Source: Escherichia coli
GTDB lineage: Bacteria > Pseudomonadota > Gammaproteobacteria > Enterobacterales > Enterobacteriaceae
Assembly (NCBI RefSeq): GCF_045037415.1
Contig: NZ_CP173438.1
Strand: one strand, 5' to 3'
Length of the DNA: 64,000 bases
The position numbers and the translations under genes were made by a program. The notes beneath the pieces are model-generated. The model did not search any database. It saw only the letters and a list, made by a program, of their open reading frames with translations, and was not told where the DNA came from. Positions within the stretch are counted from its first letter, which is position 1; each line of letters opens with the position of its first letter. Shown here one piece after another: positions 10,236-23,091 of this stretch.

Positions 10236-11489
10236 TCAGGACTCCTCATGCTCTGATTCAGGTTGACGATCCCACGACAAACGCGGGTCAAACGTCATAG
10301 CAGAAAACATTGTCATTATGACGACTAAAGCAAACATTAATGCACCCATTGCCGGATAAATACTCATTAAACCTCCCATACGCACCAGCGCCGAGAGCAC
10401 CGCGATAACGAAAACGTCAATCATCGACCAGCGGCCTACAAACTCAACAACTTCATAAATCAAATGCATTCTTTCACTGTCGCGCTTGCCGTGTCCTTTG
10501 GCATCCCAACACAGCCACGCAATGGCGATCATCTTTAACGTTGGCACCATAATACTGGCCAGAAAAATCACCGCAGCGACGGGATAAGAGCCTTCGCTCC
10601 ATAACAGAATGACCCCAGCGAGAATCGTCGACGGCATCTTCGAGCCTAATAAATCCGTCACCATGATGGGCAAAATATTAGCCGGAAGATACAGCATGAT
10701 AGACGTTACAAGCAGCGCGAGTGTCCATTGCAGGCTGTTTCTACGCCGAACGTACCCTTTGGTACTACAACGCGGGCACACGGGTTCATCAGCAGGAAGG
10801 ATTGCCGTACAACAGGAACACGAACGCAGCCCCTGGCGTATCCCCGTGACGCCTGGTTTTAGCGGCTGGCGCAGTTCTGGCATCGGGGCGATGTCGTCCC
10901 ATAACCAGCGACGATCAACGCACTGAAAAGCGCGCAGTTGCAGGACACAAAATAAACACCAGGGGAGAAAGCTGCTGCCTACCCCAATGCTGCCGTAAGC
11001 CATCAGTTTAACGAAACTGACCAGCACACCCGCGAGGAAAATCTCCGCCATTCCCCAGGTTTTGAGTTGAAAAAGCACCCGTGCCAGTTGCTCTTTTAAA
11101 CGGACCGGTAATTCCGCGCGATTCACCAGTAACAGAATGGTTATCAGACAAAACGCGGGAACCAGTTGCACAAACAACAGGAAAAAGGTGCCGAGGCTGG
11201 CGTAGTCCTCAGAAAAAAGCACGCCGGGAATTTCCAGTAATGTAATTTCACTGGTAACTCCTGCAACGTTCATATTCACAAAAGGAAACAAGTTGGACAG
11301 CAACAGCATGAACAGTGCAGCCAACGCATAGGCGGTGGGACGCTGCCGAGGGGCATCCCACGCCACGGTTAACGTTGTGCCACACCGGGGACATGCCGCT
11401 TTCTGACCATGCTCAAGGCGCGGTAACGCCACCAGCATGTCACACTGCGAGCACAGGATGTGCTTCGCGGCATGATGATGTTCGCACAT
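10236..11489 (-). CDS. pqiA: Paraquat-inducible protein A PqiA, 417 aa
   Basis: 417-aa membrane protein with paired Cys motifs; synteny. Confidence 0.9.
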   Translation of the reverse strand: MCEHHHAAKHILCSQCDMLVALPRLEHGQKAACPRCGTTLTVAWDAPRQRPTAYALAALFMLLLSNLFPFVNMNVAGVTSEITLLEIPGVLFSEDYASLGTFFLLFVQLVPAFCLITILLLVNRAELPVRLKEQLARVLFQLKTWGMAEIFLAGVLVSFVKLMAYGSIGVGSSFLPWCLFCVLQLRAFQCVDRRWLWDDIAPMPELRQPLKPGVTGIRQGLRSCSCCTAILPADEPVCPRCSTKGYVRRRNSLQWTLALLVTSIMLYLPANILPIMVTDLLGSKMPSTILAGVILLWSEGSYPVAAVIFLASIMVPTLKMIAIAWLCWDAKGHGKRDSERMHLIYEVVEFVGRWSMIDVFVIAVLSALVRMGGLMSIYPAMGALMFALVVIMTMFSAMTFDPRLSWDRQPESEHEES

Positions 11490-15646: not shown

Positions 15647-15743
15647 ATCGTCACTTTTACTCTAAGAAAATTGTTGCGCATTATAGCTAATAAGCGCGTC
15701 ATGTCATAAAGTTGAGGGCTTATTTTCATTTGAGGACCGCACC

Positions 15744-17392: not shown

Positions 17393-17565
17393 CTGCCACT
17401 CCCCAACCTTATAAAACCGCAGCGACACAATCCATTGTCGCTTCGCTTAATAACCTCAACAATAAAAGTACAAAATGTCTAAATAAGCAACAGCGATGAA
17501 TATAAAACAACCAGGGCTGAAAATAAAGCCCTGATTATCTTATAAAGAGGAATTTGAAGAAATAA

Positions 17566-18576
17566 TTAGATATGGGTAACGATTTCTTTAATCAGCGGCG
17601 GACCTTTAAAAATAAAACCAGAATAAATTTGCACCAGTGAGGCACCCGCAGCAATCTTTTCACGCGCAGCGATAACCGAGTCAATGCCGCCAACACCAAT
17701 AATCGGCAAGCGTCCGTTTAATTCCTGTGACAAGCGGCGAATAATTTCGGTGCTTTTTAACTGAAGCGGACGACCACTTAAGCCACCGGTTTGATCACAA
17801 TTTTTCATTCCCTGAACCAGAGAACGATCGAGTGTGGTATTGGTTGCAATAACGCCATCAATATTATGGCGAACTAAACTATCGGCAACCTGGATCAATT
17901 CTTCTTCAGAAAGATCCGGCGCGATCTTCACTGCGATCGGCACATATTTATGGTGCATCACTTGCAAATCATTTTGTTTATTTTTAATCGCAGTTAAGAG
18001 ATCATCCAGCGCTTCACCATATTGCAGTGTGCGTAATCCTGGGGTATTTGGCGATGAAATATTGATGGCGATATATCCCGCATAGGCATAGATTTTTTCC
18101 ATACAAATCAGATAGTCATCTTTACCCTGCTCCACCGGCGTATCTTTATTTTTGCCGATGTTAATACCCAGAACGCCGTCATAATGGGCTTTTTTTACGT
18201 TCTCTACGAGGTTATCAACGCCAAGATTATTAAAGCCCATACGGTTGATCAAACCTTCGGCATCTACCAGACGAAAGAGACGCGGCTTGTCATTACCTGG
18301 CTGGGGACGTGGCGTGACGGTACCGATCTCGATGGATCCAAATCCCATCGCGCCTAACGCGTCAATGCACTCCCCGTCTTTATCAAGACCGGCTGCCAGA
18401 CCAAGCGGATTTTTAAACGTCAGGCCCATGCAGTTAACAGGTTTCGCAGGCACTTTCTGCCGCACCAGTGCTTCAAACGGCGTTCCTGTAATACGGCGTA
18501 ATTGCTGAAAAGTAAACTCATGAGCGCGCTCTGGATCGAGCTGGAAAAGGGCTTTACGAACGAAGGGGTAGTACAT
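17566..18576 (-). CDS. pyrD: Dihydroorotate dehydrogenase (quinone) PyrD, 336 aa
   Basis: Translation from [21 protein letters not shown]; track ORF begins at an upstream TTG. Confidence 0.93.
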
Positions 18577-18662
18577 GAACTCTCCTGGATTCCCGGTGTG
18601 CAAACCGGGGGCGTATTATGTGCGAGTTCGGACCAAAAGGGAATTGACCTGCGGCAATAAAT

Positions 18663-18677
18663 AGCAAACGTTTTCTT
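18663..18677. promoter_or_regulatory. Putative PurR box upstream of pyrD
   Basis: AGCAAACGTTTTCTT resembles the PurR operator consensus as recalled; pyrD is a known PurR target. Confidence 0.5.
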
Positions 18678-18812
18678 ATTGCGCTTTTTTTATGCTTTTT
18701 TTGGCTTTTCTTCCTCAGATAAATCATTTCGACTCGCGGACGCCCTCTGTCAGACTGACCGAATTGTTATCAATGTTAACAAAACAAGAACAATTGGTTA
18801 TAAGGAGAGAGT

Positions 18813-19388
18813 ATGCGTGTCATCACCCTGGCGGGTAGTCCTCGATTTCCTTCTCGCTCCAGCTCCTTGCTGGAATATGCGCGGGAAAAACTAAATGGCC
18901 TGGATGTAGAGGTTTATCACTGGAATTTGCAAAACTTCGTCCCGGAAGATCTGCTTTATGCTCGTTTCGATAGTCCGGCACTCAAGACCTTCACCGAACA
19001 GCTGCAACAGGCCGATGGGCTGATTGTCGCCACGCCTGTGTATAAAGCCGCCTATTCCGGTGCACTGAAAACCCTGCTCGACCTGCTGCCAGAACGTGCG
19101 TTGCAAGGCAAAGTGGTGCTGCCGCTGGCGACAGGCGGCACCGTGGCCCATCTGCTGGCGGTCGATTATGCCCTTAAGCCAGTTTTAAGTACGCTGAAAG
19201 CCCAGGAGATCCTGCACGGCGTGTTTGCCGATGACTCGCAAGTAATTGATTACCAACACAAACCCCAGTTCACGCCAAATCTGCAAACTCGTCTTGATAC
19301 CGCGCTAGAAACTTTCTGGCAGGCGTTGCACCGCCGCGATGTTCAGGTTCCTGACCTACTGTCTTTGCGAGGTAATGCCCATGCGTAA
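18813..19388 (+). CDS. ssuE: NADPH-dependent FMN reductase SsuE, 191 aa
   Basis: 191-aa ORF recognised as SsuE; first gene of ssuEADCB. Confidence 0.9.
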   Translation: MRVITLAGSPRFPSRSSSLLEYAREKLNGLDVEVYHWNLQNFVPEDLLYARFDSPALKTFTEQLQQADGLIVATPVYKAAYSGALKTLLDLLPERALQGKVVLPLATGGTVAHLLAVDYALKPVLSTLKAQEILHGVFADDSQVIDYQHKPQFTPNLQTRLDTALETFWQALHRRDVQVPDLLSLRGNAHA

Positions 19389-20340
19389 GATCATTAAACT
19401 GGTGCTGGCGGGTTTACTTAGCGTCTCTACGATTGCGGTTGCTGCAGAATCCTCGCCTGAAGCGTTACGTATAGGCTATCAAAAAGGCAGTATTGGTATG
19501 GTGCTGGCAAAAAGCCACCAGTTACTGGAAAAACGCTATCCGCAAACAAAAATCTCCTGGGTCGAGTTCCCCGCTGGCCCACAGATGCTGGAGGCGTTAA
19601 ACGTTGGCAGTATCGATCTCGGCAGTACCGGGGATATTCCGCCAATCTTTGCCCAGGCTGCCGGGGCTGATTTGGTATACGTGGGCGTCGAGCCACCGAA
19701 GCCCAAAGCCGAAGTGATTCTGGTGGCAGAAAACAGCCCGATCAAAACCGTAGCCGATCTTAAAGGTCACAAAGTTGCCTTTCAGAAAGGTTCCAGTTCG
19801 CACAATCTTTTACTGCGAGCCCTTCGCCAGGCCGGGCTTAAATTCACGGATATTCAGCCCACTTACCTGACGCCTGCCGATGCCCGCGCCGCGTTCCAGC
19901 AAGGTAACGTTGACGCCTGGGCTATCTGGGATCCCTACTACTCCGCTGCATTATTACAGGGCGGCGTGCGGGTGCTGAAAGACGGCACCGATCTCAATCA
20001 AACTGGATCGTTTTATCTGGCAGCTCGTCCGTATGCAGAAAAAAACGGCGCTTTTATTCAGGGTGTGCTGACAACCTTTAGTGAGGCCGATGCGTTAACC
20101 CGCAGCCAGCGCGAACAAAGCATCGCTTTACTGGCAAAAACGATGGGCTTACCGGCACCGGTTATTGCCTCGTATCTGGATCATCGTCCTCCCACCACCA
20201 TCAAACCGTTGAGCGCTGAAGTTGCCGCCTTACAGCAGCAAACGGCAGATCTGTTTTATGAAAACCGTCTGGTGCCGAAAAAAGTCGATATTCGCCAGCG
20301 CATCTGGCAGCCCACTCAACTGGAAGGAAAACAATTATGA
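19381..20340 (+). CDS. ssuA: Alkanesulfonate ABC transporter periplasmic binding protein SsuA, 319 aa
   Basis: Translation from [14 protein letters not shown] with signal peptide; overlaps the ssuE stop. Confidence 0.9.
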
Positions 20341-21482
20341 GTCTGAATATGTTCTGGTTTTTACCGACCCACGGTGACGGGCATTATCTGGGAACGGAAG
20401 AAGGTTCACGTCCGGTTGATCACGGTTATCTGCAACAAATTGCGCAAGCGGCGGATCGTCTGGGCTATACCGGTGTGCTGATCCCGACGGGGCGATCGTG
20501 TGAAGATGCGTGGCTGGTGGCGGCGTCGATGATCCCGGTGACACAACGGCTGAAGTTTCTTGTCGCCCTGCGCCCCAGCGTAACCTCACCTACCGTTGCC
20601 GCCCGCCAGGCCGCCACGCTTGACCGTCTCTCTAACGGACGTGCGTTGTTTAACCTGGTCACAGGCAGCGATCCCCAAGAACTGGCAGGCGACGGCGTGT
20701 TCCTTGATCATAGCGAGCGTTACGAAGCCTCGGCAGAATTTACCCAGGTCTGGCGGCGGTTGTTGCTTGGCGAGACTGTGGATTTCAACGGCAAACATAT
20801 TCATGTACGCGGGGCCAAACTGCTCTTCCCGCCGATTCAACAGCCTTATCCTCCGCTTTACTTTGGCGGATCGTCAGATGTCGCCCAGGAGCTGGCGGCA
20901 GAACAAGTTGATCTCTACCTTACCTGGGGCGAACCACCGAAACTGGTAAAAGAGAAAATCGAACACGTGCGGGCGAAAGCTGCCGCGCATGGACGCAAAA
21001 TTCGTTTCGGTATTCGTCTGCATGTGATTGTTCGTGAAACCAACGACGAAGCGTGGCAGGCCGCCGAGCGGTTAATCTCGCATCTTGATGATGAAACTAT
21101 CGCCAAAGCACAGGCCTCATTCGCCCGAACGGATTCCGTAGGACAACAGCGAATGGCGGCGCTACATAACGGCAAGCGCGACAATCTGGAGATCAGCCCC
21201 AATTTATGGGCGGGTGTTGGCTTAGTGCGCGGCGGTGCCGGGACAGCGCTGGTGGGCGATGGTCCTACGGTCGCCGCGCGAATCAACGAATACGCTGCAC
21301 TTGGCATCGACAGTTTTGTGCTTTCGGGCTACCCGCATCTGGAAGAAGCGTATCGGGTCGGCGAGTTACTGTTCCCACATCTGGATGTCGCCATCCCGGA
21401 AATTCCCCAGCCACAACCGCTGAATCCACAAGGCGAAGCGGTGGCGAATGATTTTATCCCCCGTAACGTCGCGCAAAGCTAA
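20337..21482 (+). CDS. ssuD: FMNH2-dependent alkanesulfonate monooxygenase SsuD, 381 aa
   Basis: 381-aa ORF recognised as SsuD; synteny. Confidence 0.92.
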
Positions 21483-21493
21483 GGAACACGATG

Positions 21494-22285
21494 ATGGCAA
21501 CGCCAGTGAAGAAGTGGTTATTGCGCGTTGCCCCCTGGTTTTTACCGGTGGGCATCGTGGCGGTGTGGCAACTGGCCTCCTCGGTTGGCTGGCTATCGAC
21601 GCGTATTTTGCCCTCACCGGAAGGAGTGGTGATGGCGTTCTGGACGCTCTCTGCCAGCGGCGAACTGTGGCAGCATCTGGCGATCAGCTCCTGGCGTGCA
21701 CTGATTGGTTTTTCAATTGGCGGATCGCTGGGATTAATTCTGGGGCTGATTAGCGGGCTGTCACGCTGGGGTGAGCGACTGCTGGATACCTCAATTCAGA
21801 TGTTGCGCAACGTGCCGCATCTGGCGCTGATCCCGCTGGTGATTTTGTGGTTTGGCATTGATGAATCCGCAAAAATCTTTCTGGTGGCGCTCGGTACGCT
21901 ATTCCCCATTTATATCAACACCTGGCATGGCATCCGTAATATCGACCGTGAGCTGGTGGAGATGGCACGTAGCTATGGATTATCCGGCATGCCGCTGTTT
22001 ATCCATGTGATCCTGCCTGGTGCCCTGCCCTCAATTATGGTCGGTGTGCGTTTTGCTTTGGGCCTGATGTGGCTGACGCTGATCGTTGCCGAAACTATTT
22101 CTGCCAATTCCGGCATTGGTTATCTGGCGATGAATGCGCGGGAGTTTCTGCAAACGGACGTGGTGGTAGTCGCCATTATTCTTTACGCCCTGCTCGGCAA
22201 ACTTGCTGACGTCAGCGCGCAGCTGTTAGAGCGTCTCTGGTTGCGCTGGAACCCGGCTTATCATTTGAAGGAGGCCACGGTATGA
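21494..22285 (+). CDS. ssuC: Alkanesulfonate ABC transporter permease SsuC, 263 aa
   Basis: Multi-TM permease; start placed at the second Met (MATPVKK), track ORF starts one codon earlier. Confidence 0.88.
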
Positions 22286-23049
22286 ATACTGCTCGTCTGA
22301 ACCAGGGCACACCATTGTTGCTCAATGCAGTAAGCAAACATTACGCGGAAAATATCGTCCTGAACCAACTGGATTTACATATTCCAGCAGGTCAGTTTGT
22401 GGCGGTGGTGGGCCGCAGCGGTGGTGGCAAAAGTACCCTGCTGCGCCTGCTGGCAGGTCTGGAAACGCCAACCGCAGGCGACGTGTTAGCGGGCACCACA
22501 CCGCTGGCTGAGATTCAGGATGATACGCGAATGATGTTTCAGGACGCGCGTCTGCTGCCGTGGAAATCGGTGATTGATAACGTTGGGTTAGGCCTTAAAG
22601 GCCAGTGGCGCGATGCCGCGCGTCGGGCTCTGGCTGCGGTAGGACTGGAGAATCGCGCGGGGGAATGGCCTGCCGCACTTTCTGGCGGGCAGAAACAACG
22701 TGTGGCGCTGGCAAGGGCGCTGATTCATCGACCAGGTTTATTGTTGCTTGATGAACCACTCGGTGCGCTGGACGCTTTAACGCGACTCGAGATGCAGGAT
22801 TTGATTGTATCACTCTGGCAGGAGCACGGCTTTACCGTCTTGCTGGTGACGCATGATGTGAGCGAAGCGGTAGCGATGGCTGACCGGGTGTTGTTAATTG
22901 AAGAGGGAAAAATTGGTCTGGATTTGACGGTGGATATCCCCCGTCCGCGCCGGTTAGGGTCGGTACGATTAGCAGAGCTGGAAGCGGAAGTATTGCAGCG
23001 GGTGATGCAGCGTGGTGAATTTGAAACTCGCCTGAGAAAACAGGGGTAA
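22282..23049 (+). CDS. ssuB: Alkanesulfonate ABC transporter ATPase SsuB, 255 aa
   Basis: Walker [10 protein letters not shown]; synteny. Confidence 0.9.
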
Positions 23050-23091
23050 ATTCTCCGAATGGCGGCGCTATTGCCGCCATTCGGTTATTTA

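Follow-up and report, generated by a model that had tools for sequence, protein, structure and literature searches.

The window, the whole 64-kb stretch of DNA analyzed here, carries pyrD on the minus strand and ssuE on the plus strand as divergent neighbors. According to the sequence and the list of open reading frames, the two genes are separated by a spacer of 236 bp (positions 18577 to 18812). The original prediction had placed about 230 bp of regulatory sequence between them at exactly these coordinates, and both the position and the regulatory character of the spacer are borne out by the features described below. The pyrD start codon occupies 18574 to 18576 on the minus strand, and the ATG of ssuE begins at 18813. 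Strain AVS0225 is 100% identical over a 2-kb query (17500 to 19500), the gene limits mapped from its RefSeq annotation agree with those of the window, and its PyrD protein (WP_001295934.1) is shared with CFT073. The features of the locus are as follows.

17566 to 18576, minus strand: pyrD, quinone-dependent dihydroorotate dehydrogenase, 336 amino acids (open reading frame list and RefSeq annotation mapped from AVS0225)
18571 to 18644, minus strand: PyrD leader, a cis-regulatory 5' leader with hairpin CCCGGTTTGCACACCGGG (Rfam RF02373)
18636 to 18657, minus strand: conserved block AAAGGGAATTGACCTGCGGCA upstream of the pyrD leader (most positions conserved to 90% or more in 68 Enterobacteriaceae spacers)
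18662 to 18677, no strand assigned: PurR-operator-like box TAGCAAACGTTTTCTT (match to ACGCAAACGTTTTCNT with 2 mismatches; the left K-12 breakpoint, 18675/18676, falls here)
18676 to 18744, no strand assigned: 69-bp spacer segment, probably ancestral, in place of 7,087 bp in K-12 (alignment breakpoints)
18719 to 18729, plus strand: block ATAAATCATTT upstream of ssuE (in 68 spacers, all 11 positions show at least 70% conservation and 8 of them at least 90%)
18745 to 18812, plus strand: ssuE-proximal promoter core and ribosome-binding site (conserved blocks 18745 to 18756, 18762 to 18779 and 18793 to 18808; 96% identical to K-12)
18813 to 19388, plus strand: ssuE, NADPH-dependent FMN reductase, first gene of ssuEADCB, which extends to 23049 (open reading frame list and AVS0225 RefSeq annotation)

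The PyrD leader is matched over its full length (1 to 74 of 74) with a score of 97.9 bits against a gathering threshold of 47, lies directly 5' of pyrD, and is nearly invariant across 68 empty-site spacers, that is, spacers in which pyrD and ssuE adjoin. Footprinting of these 68 spacers delimited conserved blocks at 18577 to 18620, 18636 to 18657, 18659 to 18675, 18690 to 18702, 18719 to 18731, 18745 to 18756, 18762 to 18779, and 18793 to 18808. The block AAAGGGAATTGACCTGCGGCA is a putative pyrD promoter region. The adjacent box TAGCAAACGTTTTCTT is the sole match in the 64 kb, at no more than two mismatches, to the 16-bp sequence ACGCAAACGTTTTCNT, which we take to be the PurR operator consensus (0.23 matches expected), and its core GCAAACGTTTTC is conserved across genera; pyrD is under PurR control. 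On the ssuE side, ATAAATCATTT is a candidate activator site (of Cbl or CysB type) of the ancestral ssu promoter; the K-12 sequence aligned to it reads AATTTATATTT. A consensus promoter scan of 18450 to 18950 found no sigma-70-like site on either the pyrD or the ssuE side, and the lack of a recognizable -35/-10 pair for ssuE is as expected because the ssu promoter is activator dependent. The single "terminator" returned for the same interval was rejected because it is the hairpin of the pyrD leader, read from the wrong strand.

Comparison with K-12 W3110 confirmed that, as stated in the original prediction, seven elf/ycb genes lie between pyrD and ssuE in that strain. The order there is ycbF-ycbV-ycbU-elfG-elfC-elfD-elfA, and the gap between pyrD and ssuE amounts to 7,255 bp. 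Two alignment blocks connect the alleles, the left one pairing window positions 18500 to 18675 with 11001 to 11177 of the K-12 locus (L001) and the right one pairing 18745 to 18900 with 18265 to 18420. In K-12 the left block ends 10 bp before the stop codon of ycbF, and the right block begins 68 bp upstream of the K-12 ssuE ATG. Homology to K-12 is thus lost after 18675 and regained at 18745, so that 69 bp in the window stand against 7,087 bp in K-12, which comprise the seven-gene elf operon and the upstream region of elfA. The 69-bp segment has no meaningful similarity to the K-12 insert on either strand. Searches of the 64-kb window with the Elf proteins (tblastn) gave nothing matching (best E value, 0.12), and searches with elf DNA (blastn) gave a sole hit, one 21-nucleotide match with an E value of 0.38. 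The claim of a clean presence/absence polymorphism of the seven-gene operon is therefore supported, K-12 being occupied and the window empty.

The two alleles differ unevenly across the spacer. The pyrD leader and putative promoter match K-12 at 100% as far as 18657, and identity is 96% over the 68 bp next to ssuE (-1 to -68), whereas it reaches just 45% between -69 and -135. In an ungapped, colinear comparison this 45% exceeds the shuffle mean of 29% (P of ∼0.001), the best score lies at zero shift, and motifs including ATTTTCAG and ATTT-G are aligned at equal distances in elf-bearing and empty alleles. The K-12 sequence from -69 to -135 may accordingly correspond in position to the sequence in the window, though strongly diverged from it, and the right boundary is not perfectly sharp. 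If a copy of the ssu upstream region was kept in the elf allele in this way, the true insertion point would comprise the ∼14 bp that separate this region from the PurR box, a placement that is suggestive only.

Beyond the spacer, ssuEADCB (window 19000 to 22500) is unusually diverged from K-12, with 91 to 97% identity in 250-bp bins, while the pyrD side is mostly at 95 to 99%. K-12 also has an extra element of ∼146 bp in the rlmKL-ycbX spacer (L001 8022 to 8163), absent from the window at 15647 to 15743; by eye it is ERIC-like, with CTAAGA on either flank.

The direction of the change was addressed with a sample of 80 pyrD loci from other species, scored for ssuE and elf genes; its genus sampling is incomplete, in that Escherichia fergusonii, E. 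marmotae, E. ruysiae, and the representative genome of E. coli are absent from it. In 67 of the 80 loci, ssuE lies 227 to 256 bp from pyrD with nothing in between. Holders of the empty site include E. whittamii, Escherichia sp. MOD1-EC7003, the divergent "E. coli" SCPM-O-B-8794, and many members of Citrobacter, Enterobacter, Kosakonia, Klebsiella, and Kluyvera. Alignment of the 69-bp segment gave 94% identity with E. whittamii and also succeeded for Citrobacter, Kosakonia, and Enterobacter; its strongly conserved blocks include TTATGC and ATAAATCATTT. The window spacer is orthologous to the ancestral unoccupied site because a deletion cannot recreate sequence that is absent from the K-12-type allele. 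The elf-less arrangement is thus the ancestral one, and the window holds no deletion scar.

These data bear directly on simple deletion, by which a B2 ancestor of K-12 type would have lost the ∼7-kb operon through illegitimate or repeat-mediated recombination, the spacer being the resulting scar. Such an event could not restore 69 bp that are missing from the K-12 allele and kept both in E. whittamii and in other genera. Moreover, the window contains no elf gene remnant or insertion sequence, whereas a true deletion, in strain VE-T9, leaves IS1 and a ycbF fragment. Short direct repeats, which had been suggested as a feature to look for at the junction, were not found at the ends of the K-12 insert, nor were terminal inverted repeats; the repeats of note are confined to the paralogous chaperone genes ycbF and elfD. 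Simple deletion is therefore highly improbable.

A further arrangement occurs in several loci of the sample. In E. albertii (L008 6975 to 11008), Salmonella enterica subsp. arizonae (L017 7182 to 11008), and five further loci (L041, L043, L048, L059, and L077), pepN is found upstream of pyrD, and the interval between the two genes gave no sign of ssuEADCB. The pepN-pyrD gap is a few hundred base pairs in E. albertii, S. enterica subsp. arizonae, L043, L059, and L077, and several kilobases, of unexamined content, in L041 and L048. Together with the other two arrangements, this gives three states of the locus in Enterobacteriaceae, namely, pepN-pyrD, pepN-ssu-pyrD, and pepN-ssu-elf-pyrD.

Of the 80 loci, only that of Escherichia sp. 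E1V33 and three from Pseudocitrobacter have elf genes at the pyrD-ssuE site, with the same seven genes in the K-12 order. The pyrD-side junction is common to all elf-bearing forms and consists of the ycbF stop codon, 10 bp, and GAAAACGTTTGCG(T/C)TTTTTTTG, while Escherichia and Citrobacter empty sites read GAAAACG(T/A)TTGC-TATTTATTG at that junction. On the ssuE side, CCGACAG is common to K-12 and E1V33, and CTGTCAG or a close variant occurs in all empty alleles. Junction-linked single-nucleotide differences at 18658 to 18663 and at 18748/18750 set the K-12 variants apart from every empty allele, outgroups included, and alignments place the K-12 junction-proximal variants (CCGACAG and GCG-T-run) in E1V33 as well. 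A single old insertion of elf is suggested because the pyrD-side junction is common to K-12, E1V33, and Pseudocitrobacter.

The K-12 insert has a GC content of 46.5% versus 51 to 55% in its flanks, and elf is roughly twice as diverged as the flanks in comparisons of K-12 with both E1V33 and Pseudocitrobacter. Nucleotide identity between K-12 and E1V33 is 74 to 84% in elf and 89 to 92% in the flanks; for Pseudocitrobacter the corresponding values are 60 to 74% in elf and 76 to 84% in pyrD/ssuE. The similar ratio in the two comparisons is explained equally well by transfer and by rapid evolution following vertical descent. At the protein level, the E1V33 Elf proteins (L006 3113 to 9890) are 73 to 86% identical to those of K-12, and PyrD and SsuE are 98 to 99% identical.

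The lower GC content of the elf segment, together with the clean empty site, would also fit a history in which elf had been carried by a site-specific mobile island whose precise excision restored the attachment site. No integrase, transposase, recombinase, or tRNA was found in the K-12 elf segment or the adjoining annotation, however, and Rfam gave no match in the whole 64-kb window besides the PyrD leader, and hence no tRNA. The insert has no flanking direct or inverted repeats, and next to the junction the two haplotypes have different sequences, not a duplication. The probability of an excised island is close to nil.

Within E. coli, the contiguous pyrD-ssuE form was found in 1,354 of 5,426 complete genomes and the K-12 elf segment in 4,073 of them, at least 80% of the segment being held by 3,998 and less than 80% by the other 75. 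The contiguous and elf-bearing sets are almost exactly complementary, which indicates that short-form genomes lack elf altogether. This complementarity serves as a proxy for the refuting possibility named in the original prediction, elf genes elsewhere in the same genome, and makes it improbable. In a sensitive search of elf-less genomes, the best match to elfC had ∼63% identity over 41% of the gene, and such matches represent other ushers (of an auf-like operon, fimD, and sfmD). A 93-bp probe spanning the 69-bp segment hit 1,341 E. coli genomes, once in the chromosome of each; it is 100% identical in Nissle 1917 and APEC O18 and occurs also in an APEC strain of serotype O2:K1:H4. Collapse of the locus by an assembly or sequencing artifact is ruled out, as CFT073 is one of 1,354 genomes, finished independently, that have the same contiguous arrangement.

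From the identity of the locus to CFT073 and Nissle, the window is probably of B2 type at pyrD-ssuE. The 236-bp spacer of the B2 strain CFT073 is identical, the gene order is the same, and the two sequences are colinear at 98.98% identity over 37 kb. A difference lies in the ssuB-pepN spacer, which measures 226 bp in CFT073, with REP-like GCCGGATG/GCCTGATG units, and 74 bp in the window (23016 to 23089), where it has a simple GC-rich hairpin, CCGAATGGCGGC...GCCGCCATTCGG. In strain AVS0747 (NZ_CP124467.1), the flanks are 100% identical to those of the window, and an IS4-like ISVsa5 element within ssuE splits that gene into two annotated fragments.

The elf/ycb presence/absence polymorphism is already known, patchy, and ordinary, and the work of Wurpel et al. 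is among the published accounts of it. Ycb has been linked to phylogroups A, B1, D, and E and Auf to B2 (PMC3559732). González-Alba et al. (2019) reconstructed a loss of ycb in the G+B2 sublineage (PMC6896753), and a 2025 study found ycb in all ST38 strains and in none of the ST69 strains examined, both sequence types belonging to phylogroup D (PMC12058657). The phylogroup F strain SMS-3-5 carries elf, and a second elf-less set (2012C-4221, which is ST5350 and O162:H6, and GMM076) has flanks ∼97% identical to the window and a spacer that differs at a single site.

Such a distribution leaves room for loss by allelic replacement, in which the E. coli ancestor would have borne elf and the ancestor of B2 and G, and separately ST69-like lineages, would have exchanged the whole elf-bearing haplotype for an empty, ancestral-type allele of a different Escherichia lineage, through homologous recombination within pyrD and ssuE. 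The patchiness is in keeping with it, elf being absent from B2, G, and ST69 and present in ST38 (phylogroup D) and SMS-3-5 (F), and so is the near-B2 spacer, one site away, within the non-B2-like flanks of the second elf-less set. The published reconstruction of loss in G+B2 counts against retention (PMC6896753), and parsimony within E. coli points to loss if B2+G is nested among F, D, and E and these all carry elf. Loss of that kind would need replacement by an empty allele. On the other side, simple retention takes fewer events if B2 is the earliest-branching phylogroup, as stated in PMC3559732, and no recombination tract could be resolved around the empty site in 2012C-4221 and GMM076 from 250-bp identity bins and a SNP table, the 5' part of pyrD and the spacer being too conserved to delimit one. 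Allelic replacement is possible but, on balance, unlikely.

The window very probably represents the uninterrupted ancestral divergent control region of pyrD and ssuEADCB, typical of B2 and some other lineages, with the K-12 form derived from it. Under this explanation, the spacer corresponds block for block to that of other Escherichia lineages and of most Enterobacteriaceae, with nothing cut out, whether B2 never had elf or regained the empty allele by recombination, and the K-12-type form would have arisen when the ∼7-kb, lower-GC, seven-gene elf/ycb operon was inserted between the PurR box and the upstream region of ssu. The common pyrD-side junction points to one old insertion, without mobile-element marks, and the elf haplotype would later have been inherited and also exchanged by homologous recombination through its conserved flanks.

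Two linked proposals go further and are advanced tentatively, with the balance leaning slightly against the pair. The first is that elf/ycb may be one ancient insertion haplotype, shared across Escherichia and Pseudocitrobacter, that spread by homologous recombination, with B2 keeping the original empty allele instead of having lost the fimbriae as published. The second is that the K-12 ssu upstream region, the base of the Cbl/CysB/IHF model, may be haplotype specific and strongly diverged, with B2 and most Enterobacteriaceae using a different, highly conserved element, ATAAATCATTT.

The finding has little consequence except for correct annotation. Lack of Ycb/ELF is a recognized lineage marker for B2-type E. 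coli, both extraintestinal pathogenic and commensal, which bear the related Auf, and the additions made here are only small, namely, the ancestral status of the empty site and one elf-haplotype junction across two genera. With the empty site as the ancestral state, the published "loss" should be read as retention or allelic replacement and not as deletion. The upstream region of ssuE in K-12 differs from the form found in a quarter of sequenced E. coli genomes and in most Enterobacteriaceae, which could affect the use of K-12 as a model for sulfonate-sulfur regulation in other strains.

Several known systems can be set beside the window. The empty spacers of other Enterobacteriaceae share its architecture and conserved blocks, with sequence divergence as expected between species, although those of Kosakonia and Enterobacter have ∼10 extra bp beside the PurR box. 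Auf and Ycb are described as closely related and mutually exclusive (PMC3559732). The elf-less strain N24 carries, adjoining glgP, a seven-gene, two-chaperone chaperone-usher operon (L086 3788 to 10953) with an usher ∼63% identical to elfC, which fits the Auf operon of the literature; Auf occupies another chromosomal locus, outside the window. Strain VE-T9 (L087 4011 to 5218) resembles the window in lacking the elf operon at this site, but it has a truncated ycbF and IS1, the outcome of an independent IS-mediated deletion of most of the operon, whereas the window has neither and keeps the ancestral spacer. The chaperone-usher locus for ELF (E. coli laminin-binding fimbriae) in K-12 is flanked by the same genes as the spacer in the window. 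Finally, the Cbl-activated K-12 ssu promoter is matched by the window in its core sequence (96% over -1 to -68), but the K-12 stretch directly upstream of the ssu -35, where the Cbl site presumably lies, is not conserved (45%, -69 to -135), and in its place the window has the pan-enterobacterial ATAAATCATTT.
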